From positions 1,806 through 65,805 of the forward strand of contig CAKPEG010000004.1 of the NCBI GenBank assembly GCA_934149275.1: 64,000 bases of DNA. The letters run 5' to 3'. The translations under genes were made by a program, and so were the position numbers. The notes beneath the pieces were generated by a model, which had not been told where the DNA came from, searched no databases, and was given only the letters and a program-made list of their open reading frames with translations. The stretch comes from an uncultured Clostridia bacterium. Its GTDB lineage: Bacteria; Bacillota; Clostridia; TANB77; CAG-508. Positions 30,118 to 41,020 of this stretch are shown piece after piece (positions within the stretch are counted from its first letter, which is position 1; each line of letters begins with the position of its first letter).

Positions 30118-31377
30118 ATGGAAAATATAGAGAAGATTAAAGAAAAAGCTGAATATTGTTTAAATTGCAAAACACATCCATGCACAAATGCATGCCCAAT
30201 GAATACACATATACCAGAATTTATATCTAAAATAAAAAATGATGAATTTGAAGAAGCATATAAGATTTTAAGAGAGAATAATATTTTTTCTCATATTTGT
30301 AGCATGATATGCCCACAAGAAAATCAATGTGAAGGATCATGTGTAAGAGGGATAAAGCAAACTCCAACACAAATTGGAAATTTAGAAAAGTTCGTAAATG
30401 AATGGGCAGAAAATAAAAAAATAGAAATACAAGTTCCAAAAAAAGTTGACAGAAAAGAAAAAATTGCAGTAATAGGATCAGGTCCAGCCGGATTAGAATG
30501 TGCATATGAGTTGAGAAAAAAAGGATTTCAAGTTACAGTATTTGAAAAGGAAAAAGAACTAGGTGGAATTTTAAAATATGGAATACCAGATTTTAGATTA
30601 GAAAAAAAGTATGTACAAGAAATTATAGATATGTTAAAAAATATGAATGTTAAATTTGAAACAGAAAAAGAACTAGGAAAAAATATTCATATTAGTGATT
30701 TGAAAAAAGAGTATGATTGTGTATTTTTAGGAATAGGAGCAGAAACTTCAAGCAAATATGATTTAGGAGACTTTGAGCAAATATATGATTCAGACTATTT
30801 CTTGAAAGCATATAATAGAAATAATTTTATTCCTAATTTAGGAGATGTTGTAATAATAGGTGGAGGAAATGTTGCAATGGACTCTGCAAGAGTAGCATTA
30901 AAGATGGGAGCAAAGTCATCAAACATACTATATAGAAGAGATGTAGAGCACATGCCTGCTAGAAAAATTGAACTAGAAGAAGCAATTGAAGATGGAGTAA
31001 ATCCTGAATTTACAACAAGAGTGATTAAAGCAGAAGGAAAAGATAAAAAGATTGAATATGTAAAATGCATCAAAACAAAAGTTGTTGAAGGAAAAGCAAT
31101 GGATATTCCAAATACAGAATTTGATTTTAAGGCAGACACTGTTGTATTTGCAATAGGATTAAAACCAAACAAAGAAGTTCTAAAAGCAGAAGGTTTGGAA
31201 TATAATGAAAGTGGACTATTAAAAATAGATGATAAAGAAAGGACAAATATCGAAGGAGTATATGCTGGAGGAGATTTGTCTGAAAGTAAATCAACAGTCT
31301 GCAGAGCACTTGGAAGTGCAAGAAATGCAGCAAATGCAATTATAGAATTTTTTGAAAAGGGAGATACAAATGTTTAA
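30118..31377 (+). CDS. GltD/SudA-like NAD(P)H-dependent FAD oxidoreductase with N-terminal Fe-S cluster motifs
   Basis: Motifs CLNCKTHPCTNACP and CPQENQCEGSC. Dinucleotide folds IAVIGSGPAGL and VVIIGGGNVAMD. Confidence 0.8.
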   Translation: MENIEKIKEKAEYCLNCKTHPCTNACPMNTHIPEFISKIKNDEFEEAYKILRENNIFSHICSMICPQENQCEGSCVRGIKQTPTQIGNLEKFVNEWAENKKIEIQVPKKVDRKEKIAVIGSGPAGLECAYELRKKGFQVTVFEKEKELGGILKYGIPDFRLEKKYVQEIIDMLKNMNVKFETEKELGKNIHISDLKKEYDCVFLGIGAETSSKYDLGDFEQIYDSDYFLKAYNRNNFIPNLGDVVIIGGGNVAMDSARVALKMGAKSSNILYRRDVEHMPARKIELEEAIEDGVNPEFTTRVIKAEGKDKKIEYVKCIKTKVVEGKAMDIPNTEFDFKADTVVFAIGLKPNKEVLKAEGLEYNESGLLKIDDKERTNIEGVYAGGDLSESKSTVCRALGSARNAANAIIEFFEKGDTNV

Positions 31378-32746
31378 AGAATATATTATTGCAAATGAAG
31401 ATCAAATGATAAAAGACTTGGGAGAAATGATAAAAATCCCAAGCAAATTAGAAGGATATGATAATCCTCAATATCCTTTTGGAAAAAATGTAGATGATGC
31501 GTTAAACAAATTTTTAGAAATAGGAAAAAGACTAGGATTTAGAACAAAAAACATAGATAAATATTGTGGATACATTGAATTTGGAGAAGGCAAAGAACTA
31601 GTTGGAATAATTGGACATTTAGATGTAGTGCCAGAAGGCGAAGGTTGGACACATCCACCATTTGAACTTACTATAGATAATGATAAACTTTATGGAAGAG
31701 GAACAACTGATGATAAAGGACCAATGATAGCTAGCTTATATGCTATGAAAGCAGTTATGGAAAATACCGCTGTACATAAAAGAGTAAGATTAATAATTGG
31801 ATTAAACGAAGAAAATAGTTGGAAGTGTATAAATTATTATAAGGCTCATGAAGAAGCACCAACAGTTGGATTTAGTCCAGATGCTGATTTTCCTTGCATA
31901 TATGCAGAAAAAGCACTTCTTACAGCATATACATCTGAGACATGTGTTGAAAATGATAAAATTAAAATAAAAGAAATAGACTGCAAAAATAATAGAGTTA
32001 ACGTAGTTCCAAAGTATTGTTCTGTGAAACTAGAAGTAGACTCAAAAATAGAGGAAGAAGTAAAGAAATTCTTATTGGAAAAAGTATCAGAAAATATATC
32101 TTTTACAAAAATGCAGAACGAATTTTATATAGAAACAAGGGGAATACAAGCTCATGCAGCACATCCCGAATTAGGAAAAAATGCTGTTTCAGAGATGGTA
32201 ATGATTTTGAATGAATTGCTTAATAGATATGATGTTGAAGAAAAAACAATAAGACTATTAGCTACTAAAGTTAGAAGAGAAACTAATGGAGAAAGCTTAG
32301 GAATTGATCACAAAAATACAGAATTAGGCGATTTGACTTTAAACTTAGCACAACTAAAATTAGAAGATGGAAAAATAAAATCTGGAATGAACTTAAGAAT
32401 ACCAGGAGATCAAAACCTAGAAGAGGTTAAAACAAAAATAGAAAAAGAATTAGATGGAATAGAAATAAAATTTTTTGGAGAAAAACCAGCATTATATATT
32501 CCAAAAGACAATGAATTAGTAAAAAAATTATGTAGAATTTATAATGAGTATACAGGTGAAAATAAAGACCCTTTAGCAATTGGGGGAGCAACATTTGCAA
32601 GAGCTTTCGAAAACTGCGTTTCATTTGGAGCAATAAAACCAGGCGAACCTGACATGTGCCATCAAGTAGATGAATATATTAAACATAAAGATTTAATAGA
32701 TGCTTGTTGCATGTATGCAACTGCAATATACGAATTAGCGCAATAA
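31370..32746 (+). CDS. pepV: M20-family dipeptidase PepV
   Basis: GHLDVVPEGEGWTHPPFELTIDNDKLYGRGTTDDKGP. Overlaps the upstream stop codon (ATGTTTAA). Confidence 0.88.
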   Translation: MFKEYIIANEDQMIKDLGEMIKIPSKLEGYDNPQYPFGKNVDDALNKFLEIGKRLGFRTKNIDKYCGYIEFGEGKELVGIIGHLDVVPEGEGWTHPPFELTIDNDKLYGRGTTDDKGPMIASLYAMKAVMENTAVHKRVRLIIGLNEENSWKCINYYKAHEEAPTVGFSPDADFPCIYAEKALLTAYTSETCVENDKIKIKEIDCKNNRVNVVPKYCSVKLEVDSKIEEEVKKFLLEKVSENISFTKMQNEFYIETRGIQAHAAHPELGKNAVSEMVMILNELLNRYDVEEKTIRLLATKVRRETNGESLGIDHKNTELGDLTLNLAQLKLEDGKIKSGMNLRIPGDQNLEEVKTKIEKELDGIEIKFFGEKPALYIPKDNELVKKLCRIYNEYTGENKDPLAIGGATFARAFENCVSFGAIKPGEPDMCHQVDEYIKHKDLIDACCMYATAIYELAQ

Positions 32747-32751
32747 AATAA

Positions 32752-32780
32752 TTGACTTAGAACGTATTAACTGTTATAAT
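32752..32780 (+). promoter_or_regulatory. sigma-A type promoter driving the Mn2+ riboswitch leader
   Basis: TTGACT, 17 nt spacer, TATAAT. Confidence 0.6.
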
Positions 32781-32788
32781 AAAAAAAC

Positions 32789-32879
32789 GATGAGGGAGTA
32801 GTTAGCATATTATTAATATGTAATATATTCAACATAATGATAATAATATCTGGATATATTTTAAATAATGAGACTTATC
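32789..32879 (+). promoter_or_regulatory. yybP-ykoY (Mn2+) riboswitch aptamer
   Basis: Conserved GGGAGTAG near the 5' end, TTCAACATA (compare UUGACAUA), and AATGAGAC near the 3' end. The closing helix is GATGAG / CTTATC. It lies upstream of mntP, the classic regulated gene. Confidence 0.6.
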
Positions 32880-32909
32880 TGTAGCAACTACAGATATAGT
32901 CTTTTTTTT
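32872..32909 (+). terminator. riboswitch expression-platform terminator
   Basis: Stem GACTTATCTGTAG / CTACAGATATAGTC followed by T8. Its 5' arm overlaps the aptamer P1 3' strand. Confidence 0.7.
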
Positions 32910-33056
32910 ATATAATAGGAAAGTTCTCCGAACTTCCTATTATATAAAATAACAATGCACAGAAATTTGCTCTGCAAATTTCGCGCGCGAACAAAGACGC
33001 GGACTTAAAAATGTTATAATTGGTGCAAATGTTATTAATGTCCGCTTTTGTTCTAT
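32909..33056 (+). repeat. Family-B structured repeat, copy B1
   Basis: Three hairpins: TATATAATAGGAAAGTTC/GAACTTCCTATTATATA, GAAATTTGC/GCAAATTTC and GAACAAAGACGCGGAC/GTCCGCTTTTGTTC. About 150 bp aligns with 40872-41020. Confidence 0.85.
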
Positions 33057-33115
33057 GAAAAATATCAGTTATATGTGCTAACTACGACCATAAAATATAT
33101 AAAGGAGAATCAGTC

Positions 33116-33691
33116 GTGGGAATTGGAGAATTAATAGTATTAAGCTTAGGATTAGGAATGGACGCCTTTGCTGTTTCAATATGTAAAGGTTTATCAATGA
33201 AAAAAATGAACTGGAAAAAAGCTTTAATTATAGGATTGTATTTTGGAGGATTTCAAGCTATAATGCCAGTACTAGGATACTTTCTAAGTAAAGGATTTGA
33301 GAATTTTGTAACTAGTATTGATCATTGGATTGCATTTATTTTACTTAGCATAATAGGCGGGAAAATGGTAAAAGATGCTTTTAGCCAAGGAAATAGCGAA
33401 AACTGTAATGAAGACGTTGGATTTAAAACAATGATAGTTTTAGCAATTGCAACAAGTATAGATGCATTAGCTGTTGGAATTACATTTGCGTTTTTAAATG
33501 TTAATTTAATTTTAGCAATTGCACTAATAGGAAGTATAACTTTTTTCTTATCTGTGATAGGAACAAAGGTTGGAAACATATTTGGAGACAGATATGAAAA
33601 TAAAGCAGAACTTTTAGGTGGAGTTATTTTAATTTTCTTGGGAATAAAAATTTTACTAGAGCATTTAAATATTATTAATTTCTTTATATAA
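33116..33691 (+). CDS. mntP: manganese efflux pump MntP
   Basis: GTG start after an AAAGGAG RBS. Motifs [15 protein letters not shown] and [14 protein letters not shown]. Confidence 0.88.
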
Positions 33692-33858
33692 TAGAAAAAT
33701 GAATAACATTCTATCTTAGAAAAATAGCATGAGCAGAAATTAAAAAAAGTTTCTATCTATGAAAAAAAGAACTAAAAAGTTATAATGAGTGTAAAGATTA
33801 AAAATGTTCATTTTGCTCTAGGCAATTCAACATACATATGTATTAGAAGGGAGAATTT

Positions 33859-40872: not shown

Positions 40873-41020
40873 ATATAATAGGAAAGTTCTCTGAACTTCC
40901 TATTATATAAAAATAATAATGCACAAAAATTTGCTTTGCAAATTTCGCACACGAACAAAGACGTGGACTTAAAAATGTTACAATCAGTACAAAGGCTATA
41001 AATAGCCCGCTTTTGTTCTA
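40872..41020 (+). repeat. Family-B structured repeat, copy B2
   Basis: Colinear with 32909-33056, with the same three hairpins and an internal TGTTACAAT box. Confidence 0.85.

Follow-up and report, generated by a model that had tools for sequence, protein, structure and literature searches.

What becomes of riboswitch control when a mobile repeat lands between the riboswitch and its gene? The question is raised by the mntP locus of an uncultured gut Clostridia bacterium, which lies in a 64-kb stretch of DNA (hereafter the window; C4:1806-65805 of a 1.63-Mb genome of 28.9% G+C, 49 contigs and 94% completeness). Here B1, a copy of an interspersed repeat family that we call B, separates the terminator of a Mn2+ riboswitch from mntP, the gene for a manganese efflux pump, and carries an extended -10-like box, TGTTATAAT, facing that gene. 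A preliminary description of the locus had left two alternatives, namely that the box is active and gives mntP a transcript independent of the riboswitch, or that the repeat merely rides along in a leader under riboswitch control, which it lengthens by three hairpins. Indirect evidence from the sequence of this genome (G000) and of 41 related genomes (among them those labelled G002-G020 below) favours the second alternative over a bypass. It is probable that B1 is a recent, terminator-homing passenger in the leader of a genuine Mn2+ ON riboswitch and not part of the device.

Aptamer and expression platform of the mntP leader

The motifs on which a yybP-ykoY-type aptamer had been proposed for this leader are GGGAGTAG at 32794-32801, CAACATA at 32830-36 and GAGAC at 32870-74, and the preliminary description had made the proposal stand or fall with a scan by the Rfam covariance model of the class. 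That model, RF00080 (Rfam 15, 'Manganese', 177 positions), gave no match on the 64-kb window at the gathering threshold (45 bits) and none at E<=10 in a 501-nt or a 138-nt stretch of the locus; it likewise found nothing in the whole genome and nothing in the 41 relatives, which belong to the same order. Taken literally, this outcome goes against the aptamer and, with it, against the riboswitch on which our reading of the locus depends. The best Rfam match at this position was a streptococcal small RNA family, SSRC10 (RF02617), which scored 22.9 bits, below threshold, and whose consensus is laid out in a like manner and also lacks P4, with GGGAGUAG, a hairpin, a second hairpin with a CAAUAC internal loop, and GAGAC leading into a terminator.

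We rejected the RF00080 miss as proof that there is no aptamer, on the strength of an independent model and of the scores that RF00080 itself gives to homologues below its threshold. The independent covariance model was built from 10 distant Clostridia mntP leaders, the window and its genus being left out. It makes a single match in the window, at 32786-32882 (68.2 bits, E 2.7e-15), which backs the aptamer of the preliminary description; it finds a second aptamer in the genome at C12:252-349, and among the 41 relatives it detects 30 full-length aptamers scoring 55-78 bits, spread over 24 genomes in which RF00080 found none and in which the motif stands upstream of mntP or of a P-type ATPase gene. 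Among the mntP loci collected from relatives, the motif also occurs 5' of mntP in Lachnospiraceae, Ruminococcaceae, Dorea, Blautia, Butyricicoccus and others. Two of these homologous leaders are scored by RF00080 below threshold, that of Butyricicoccus porcorum (L108) at 39 bits (E 3.7e-7) and a second one (L075) at 22 bits; in both alignments L1, P2 and P3-L3 align with high posterior probability, whereas the long 3' hairpin of the model does not. The miss reflects insufficient sensitivity of the Rfam model; the RNA itself is present.

The architecture of the aptamer was derived by comparison. In an alignment of 16 leaders GGGAGUA, CAACAUA and GAGAC are invariant, and RNAalifold predicts 27 pairs, of which 17 show compensatory double changes, in support of P1.1, P1.2, P2 and P3.1/P3.2. 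Read from the 5' end, the RNA consists of P1.1, L1 (5' strand GGGAGUAG at 32794-801), P1.2, the P2 hairpin, the P3.1-L3-P3.2 hairpin (L3 being CAACAUA at 32830-36), 5 unpaired nucleotides, and then the 3' strands of P1.2 and P1.1, with GAGAC at 32870-74. The pairing of GATGAG with CTTATC that had been named P1 corresponds to P1.1 and was found at 32789-94 with 32874-79. The conserved loops of the metal site are present in the right order, L1 of the GGGAGUAG type, L3 of the (G)UCAACAUA type with the Mn-coordinating adenosine, and the 3' GAGAC, and they align to the RF00080 consensus in the alignment of the B. porcorum leader. The aptamer is very A+U-rich (23% G+C), and no P4 helix was found in it, just the 5 unpaired nucleotides between P3 and the 3' strand of P1.2.

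Published aptamers of the class are four-way junctions with a right leg of P1.1, L1, P1.2 and P2 and a left leg of P3.2, L3, P3.1 and P4 (PMC12153347). The missing P4 of the crystallised four-way junctions and the silence of RF00080 would both fit the view that the RNA at 32786-32882 is not a manganese riboswitch at all, being a look-alike leader or a member of another ligand class with short motifs in common. We hold this to be highly improbable. L1, L3 and GAGAC do not vary over the 16 leaders and all four helices covary; RF00080 does score a homologue in the same alignment, at the 39 bits given above; and the genes after the two copies in the genome encode metal exporters, MntP and a P-type ATPase, as is classical for the class. 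Furthermore, E. coli alx is an accepted Mn2+ riboswitch and is itself a three-way junction, lacking P2 (PMC12153347), so the absence of P4 is not disqualifying. Judged by its sequence, the RNA of the locus is a genuine yybP-ykoY-class Mn2+ riboswitch with a compact, P4-less three-way junction, for which a response to Mn2+ is predicted.

The expression platform is predicted to follow the logic of the class. The 5' arm of the terminator (32870-32884) holds both GAGAC and the P1.1 3' strand, CUUAUC, so that the aptamer and terminator folds would be mutually exclusive, and the terminator hairpin is also present in strains in which the B1 site is empty and in the sister species G020. The promoter of the leader is kept in G020 and in strain contigs, and its transcription start is predicted near 32787. 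An ON-switch mechanism is established for yybP-ykoY riboswitches (PMC12153347), and by analogy with that family the mntP leader would be a transcriptional ON switch: the near-consensus promoter would start a leader RNA with the compact aptamer, Mn2+ binding would lock P1.1, the terminator could then not form, and transcription would proceed into mntP. As a separate observation, G002, G007, G011 and G015 have their sole Mn aptamer 2.7-3.9 kb upstream of mntP, which suggests that the ATPase gene and mntP form one riboswitch-controlled operon there, as opposed to two separate units in the genome of the window.

The B repeat family and the age of B1

The B family is a 146-nt, three-hairpin interspersed repeat found 98 times in the genome, or about once per 17 kb, 54 of the copies being full length (blastn, then a profile hidden Markov model with nhmmer), and it is present in 19 of the 41 relatives, mainly those of the same genus and family. 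B1 is the top scorer among the 98 nhmmer hits (154 bits), full-length and near-consensus, and a stretch of 151 nt starting at 32910 gives a three-hairpin fold of -46.2 kcal/mol (z = -6.4 versus shuffles). Nearly all copies (93/98) are intergenic. Between tandem genes 34 are co-oriented with transcription and 4 opposed, while 10 lie between convergent and 5 between divergent genes. Their 5' ends adjoin at least 5 T in 8 nt in 62 of 66 cases, and a hairpin of -10 kcal/mol or lower precedes the repeat in 40 of 66, compared with 11.5% of 600 control intergenic T-runs, the median energy of the upstream hairpin being -12.7 kcal/mol for B copies and -2.2 kcal/mol for the controls. When the joined flanks of 22 copies were searched against three sister genomes, 9 empty sites were retrieved, and in these the terminator hairpin and its T-run already exist, B sitting 0-4 nt from the end of the T-run. 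Filled and empty sites differ among G000, G020 and G006 and also within the species. B is a selfish repeat that inserts where the T-tract of a terminator ends, pointing in the direction of transcription.

Terminal inverted repeats are missing from B, whose two ends (ATATAATAGG... and ...TTTTGTTCT) are not inverted copies of one another, and no consistent target-site duplication was seen across nine filled/empty pairs (G020, G006), the second Mn locus and the within-species alleles, the junction being ambiguous by 1-4 nt; of the models tried (no duplication, or duplication of TA, AT or TAT), none fits all pairs without extra changes of 1-2 nt. The 3' end of the repeat (GCGGAC...GTCCGC TTTTGTTCT) resembles its own target, and several copies are inserted head-to-tail behind another one, with tandem insertions directly after CCGCTTTTGTT of the earlier copy at C3:9185/9312, in C24 and at C1:89873. 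No Y1 transposase was found with Pfam Y1_Tnp in the 94%-complete genome. The best match reached 16.5 bits, below the cut-off, and was rejected as a candidate: it lies in an unrelated open reading frame (ORF) of 286 aa that is not transposase-like on inspection of its sequence, no family search having been run on this ORF. A literature search returned nothing specific on terminator-targeting miniature inverted-repeat transposable elements (MITEs) with outward promoters.

At mntP itself the repeat is young. B1 is absent from the orthologous site in G020, G018 and G016, and the comparison with leaders lacking the repeat that the preliminary description had asked for is provided by G020, which keeps a matching promoter, aptamer and terminator and in which the native leader comes straight after the terminator (...GTCTTTTTTTATACGAAAAATATCAG...); downstream of B1, the stretch 33055-33115 of the window matches the empty-site leader base for base. 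An identical MntP is encoded in 177 blocks of public assemblies, from which 24 metagenome contigs were read. The empty leader was found at three representative places, corresponding to ~21 of the 24 contigs, and a B1 identical to that of the window at one place, corresponding to ~3 of the 24. Because the site is empty in three related species and in most contigs with the same protein, B1 is recent and polymorphic within the species. It landed at mntP because the expression platform of the riboswitch is a good terminator, and since the family homes to terminator T-runs in general, mntP as the site is incidental.

Two sister species have lost the riboswitch at mntP. In G006 (G006:C2:7587-11159, L003) the promoter, aptamer and terminator are deleted between two ATAAAAT direct repeats, leaving mntP ~20 nt after the stop codon of the peptidase gene upstream, and in G017 (G017:C15, L008) a ~240-bp palindromic element stands in place of the riboswitch.

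The features of the locus are collected in Table 1. ORFs and Pfam matches give the plus-strand order M20 peptidase gene, a spacer of 369 nt, mntP and an LD-carboxypeptidase gene. The stop codon of the peptidase gene is 5 nt upstream of the riboswitch promoter, and an M20 peptidase is likewise the neighbour of mntP in G020, G018, G016 and G006. The layout in the preliminary description was recovered throughout: its TTGACT-17-TATAAT promoter, the terminator overlapping the aptamer with T8 ending at 32909, B1 directly after that T-run, the extended -10 oriented to mntP and the start of mntP at 33116 all stand where they had been placed.

Table 1. Features of the mntP locus in the window (coordinates are those of the window; RBS, ribosome-binding site)
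Feature	Position (strand)	Description
M20-family peptidase gene	31352..32746 (+)	Pfam Peptidase_M20, 4e-27
mntP leader promoter, sigma-A type	32752..32780 (+)	TTGACT, 17-nt spacer, TGTTATAAT; 11/12 matches, TG before the -10
Predicted Mn2+ aptamer, yybP-ykoY class	32786..32882 (+)	independent covariance model
Intrinsic terminator	32870..32909 (+)	stem 32870-32903, T8 at 32902-32909
B1 repeat	32910..33054 (+)	nhmmer; hairpin 1, 32910-45; hairpin 2, 32957-88; hairpin 3, 32989-33053
Extended -10-like box	33012..33020 (+)	TGTTATAAT, apical part of B1 hairpin 3, facing mntP
Native 3' leader part	33055..33115 (+)	RBS AAAGGAG at 33101-33107
mntP, manganese efflux pump	33116..33691 (+)	GTG start, 191 aa, PF02659 (Pfam Mntp), 1e-52
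Degenerate B-like remnant	33704..33818 (+)	nhmmer, E = 5e-4, marginal

Two further sites in the window carry B sequence. The remnant at 33704-33818, between mntP and the LD-carboxypeptidase gene, keeps AGTTATAAT, with its TATAAT at 33781-86, 73 nt before the start codon, within a promoter-like site at 33759-33786, and may be an old B copy whose box now serves as the -10 of the LD-carboxypeptidase gene. A second full copy, B2 (40874-41019), follows the terminator AGTTAGTGCTAGCCACTAACTTTTT; its site is empty in G006, where only ~11 nt separate the terminator and the RBS of the following gene, and the gene after B2 would therefore normally have to be expressed by read-through, with or without the repeat.

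The -10 box of B: promoter or passenger

We regard it as unlikely that the TGTTATAAT box of B1 is an active extended -10, which would give a riboswitch-independent mntP transcript from near 33027, constitutive in strains with B1. The box is a perfect TGnTATAAT facing mntP, 96 nt upstream of the start codon, and B1 does not have it by chance but through descent from the family consensus: 41 of the 54 full copies have a perfect TATAAT. Numerous copies are followed at 20-150 nt by a gene in the same orientation, and the degenerate copy 3' of mntP retains its TATAAT before the next gene. On the other hand, the TG that would make the element an extended one precedes the hexamer in only ~19 of the 54 copies (about 35%), its two columns (0.52 and 0.70) being among the least conserved of B. 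As a measure of background, the 9-mer TGNTATAAT is common in this 29% G+C genome, with 351 occurrences, of which 191 fall within genes.

For the box of B1 no -35 element was found at spacings of 16-18 nt, the hexamer at 17 nt being CAAAGA and the best candidate matching in 2 of 6 positions. None of 24 boxes within B copies has a -35 that matches in 4 or more of 6 positions, compared with 72 of 136 (53%) intergenic boxes outside repeats and 29 of 191 (15%) genic ones. In this respect the B boxes resemble background. Conservation of the box is not higher where it could serve a gene, since it is perfect in 35 of 53 copies facing a gene start and in 20 of 25 facing a gene end or lying antisense (66% versus 80%), and no context difference indicative of host selection on the box was seen in any of the three age classes. 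As for structure, the hexamer hardly varies and the apical stem is without double changes; this is taken from pair counts on the consensus fold, which replaced RNAalifold after the latter, run on an hmmalign alignment of B, did not return the hairpins.

Other leaders that have received the repeat bear on the same point. Ten attenuators were found in the genome (2 Mn riboswitches, 7 T-boxes and 1 S-adenosylmethionine (SAM) riboswitch), and a B copy is present in 5 of these 10 leaders, namely both Mn riboswitches and the T-boxes of ileS, pheST (pheS) and serS. Generic intergenic terminators from a strict scan have one in 16 of 175 cases (9%), a comparison that is post hoc and rests on small numbers. 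Thiamine pyrophosphate, flavin mononucleotide and purine riboswitches were not found in the genome search, and the single SAM riboswitch is without a repeat. At ileS (C1:89818-90255), pheST (C9:35053-35433) and serS (C15:11830-12160), B lies between the T-box terminator and the gene. The T-boxes of all three are intact, that of ileS being the best-scoring one of the genome (125.6 bits). The serS copy of B has lost the loop with the -10 box by deletion, the serS locus also including a small DUF1653-like ORF. The second Mn riboswitch (G000:C12:1-400, L113; 64.5 bits) has its own TTGCCA-17-TATAAT promoter and terminator, and the gene after it is a P-type cation ATPase in G020, G006 and G018. An old, degenerate B-like stretch follows this terminator in G000, G020 and G006 and is absent in G018, and behind it stands a young full copy in G000 and G020, the G000 contig breaking inside the young copy; an old B and an intact second Mn riboswitch thus coexist in three species. 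Strong constitutive promoter activity of B, or efficient termination by it, would put half of the attenuators found out of action. For promoter activity in particular, the repeat occurs in leaders of essential aminoacyl-tRNA synthetase genes with intact T-boxes, where a strong constitutive promoter would be hard to tolerate. A different repeat family of ~130 nt (GACGCGCAGTTTGAGAGGTTTTGTCAGGCCGGC...GGGCCGTAAAATCTCTCAGCAAGG) was also noticed in the ileS leader, downstream of the B copies (G000:C1:89640-89790); its G+C content is comparatively high, and G006 and G020 contain dozens of matches to it.

The same leaders speak to the possibility that B1 acts as a polar block or insulator. Its hairpin 3 (GCGGAC...GUCCGC, then UUUUGUUCU) would terminate transcription before mntP, so that Mn2+-induced expression would be lowered or abolished, possibly with re-initiation from the box in the loop, as in a terminator-promoter cassette. 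The hairpin is long and stable, its tail UUUUGUUCU is U-rich, the 3' end of B mimics its own target and has been used as one by other copies inserted after CCGCTTTTGTT, and SPRITE repeats of the pneumococcus have been proposed to act as terminators (PMC3049150). However, ileS and pheST, which are essential and need read-through, are separated from their T-box antiterminators by full copies with an intact hairpin 3, and the 34 copies between co-oriented genes are tolerated. The apical region of 36 nt and a run of only four consecutive U are moreover atypical of efficient intrinsic terminators, and the consensus terminator scan made no call. We judge such a block to be very unlikely.

Several observations weigh against the reading of B1 as an inert passenger. 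TATAAT is strikingly conserved, with no covariation by which base pairing could account for it. In some low-G+C Gram-positive bacteria an extended -10 promoter can function without a -35. Having lost the mntP riboswitch, G006 and G017 indicate that unregulated mntP is evidently viable, and therefore a bypass is not necessarily selected against. Finally, the three T-box insertions are common to G020 and empty in G006, G014, G016 and G018 where these are informative; being common only to the closest species, they indicate that the coexistence of attenuator and repeat is not very old, the second Mn locus excepted.

Predicted folds of the leader are consistent with a passenger. B1 is predicted to fold as a separate module in the read-through leader, and the RBS of mntP should remain unpaired in both alleles, the predicted values being 0.93 with B1 and 0.89 in the empty allele; in the short transcript predicted for the bypass it would be less accessible (0.44). 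On the passenger reading, B1 would be transcribed within the read-through leader, fold by itself and leave the RBS free, so that riboswitch control would not be abolished, and the TGTTATAAT box would add at most a weak constitutive start. A broader scheme would make B more than a passenger. The repeat may integrate where RNA polymerase terminates, by termination-coupled or hairpin-guided homing, with attenuators behind strong promoters as hot spots; its copies, each bringing a terminator-like 3' hairpin whose loop contains a TATAAT, would then be mobile 'stop and restart' cassettes that uncouple genes from their riboswitch or T-box sensors, and the mntP allele a segregating natural bypass. This scheme seems to us distinctly unlikely.

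Implications and relation to known systems

The locus itself is ordinary, a known riboswitch class before its classical target plus a selfish repeat. Of wider concern, the current Rfam manganese model misses the compact, A+U-rich form of the aptamer across a clade of uncultured gut Clostridia, and with no RF00080 match in 41 genomes against 30 aptamers in 24 of them, automated annotation will report that Mn riboswitches are lacking. The precise homing of B to terminator T-runs makes hits on riboswitch and T-box terminators inevitable as well, and attenuator leaders with and without a 146-nt structured insert form a natural series. At mntP, the polymorphism of B1 among strains with identical MntP makes the question of a bypass directly answerable by comparing two alleles. 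Should the 'stop and restart' scheme hold, riboswitch- and T-box-controlled genes could be uncoupled from their sensors by a mobile repeat.

Compared with the yybP-ykoY riboswitches of RF00080 (L. lactis yoaB, B. subtilis yybP/ykoY, E. coli mntP/alx), the RNA of the window has the same L1 (GGGAGUAG), an L3 of the GUCAACAUA type and GAGAC, a P1.1 that is the switch helix and whose 3' strand is common to the terminator, the same ON-switch logic as predicted here, and the same kind of gene partners, mntP and, for the second copy, a P-type ATPase. It differs from the crystallised aptamers in being without P4 and three-way rather than four-way, from E. coli alx in that the three-way junction of the latter is without P2, and from the family at large in its 23% G+C and in going unscored by the current Rfam model.

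For the B repeat, parallels in target choice are class C group II introns, IS200/IS605-type insertion sequences (IS) and REP/RAYT elements, which likewise enter directly 3' of an intrinsic terminator hairpin and always in one orientation; their ends are rich in hairpins, they leave no clear target duplication, and they can form head-to-tail tandems. B differs in measuring only 146 nt and in being without intron or ribozyme features, and the Pfam search found no Y1 transposase in the 94%-complete genome of the window. The Correia elements (CREE) of Neisseria and the outward promoters of IS are comparable as small mobile repeats with promoter-like -10 boxes able to land before host genes and to be co-transcribed into mRNAs as structured leaders. 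Correia elements, however, have terminal inverted repeats, a TA target duplication and promoters made at the junction, whereas B is without terminal inverted repeats or a clear duplication, and its box is internal, without a -35, and a candidate only.

The SPRITE, BOX and RUP repeats of Streptococcus pneumoniae (Croucher et al. 2011, PMC3049150) are similar to B in being ~100-150 nt long, A+T-rich, hairpin-forming and non-coding, in having tens to hundreds of intergenic copies enriched near the 3' ends of genes and, for SPRITE, in a terminator-like shape. B differs in adjoining a pre-existing terminator T-run precisely and in one orientation (62/66 5' ends; 34 versus 4), the empty sites proving the terminator to be part of the target rather than of B itself; B also has three hairpins and a conserved TATAAT, bears no sequence similarity to these repeats and has uncultured gut Clostridia as its host. 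Its dispersed, intergenic, non-coding copies and their presence/absence polymorphism between strains are those of a repeat of the SPRITE/BOX/REP kind, whereas the terminal inverted repeats and target-site duplication of a classical MITE are missing. The mntP locus combines known kinds of element, a Mn2+ riboswitch and a small interspersed repeat.

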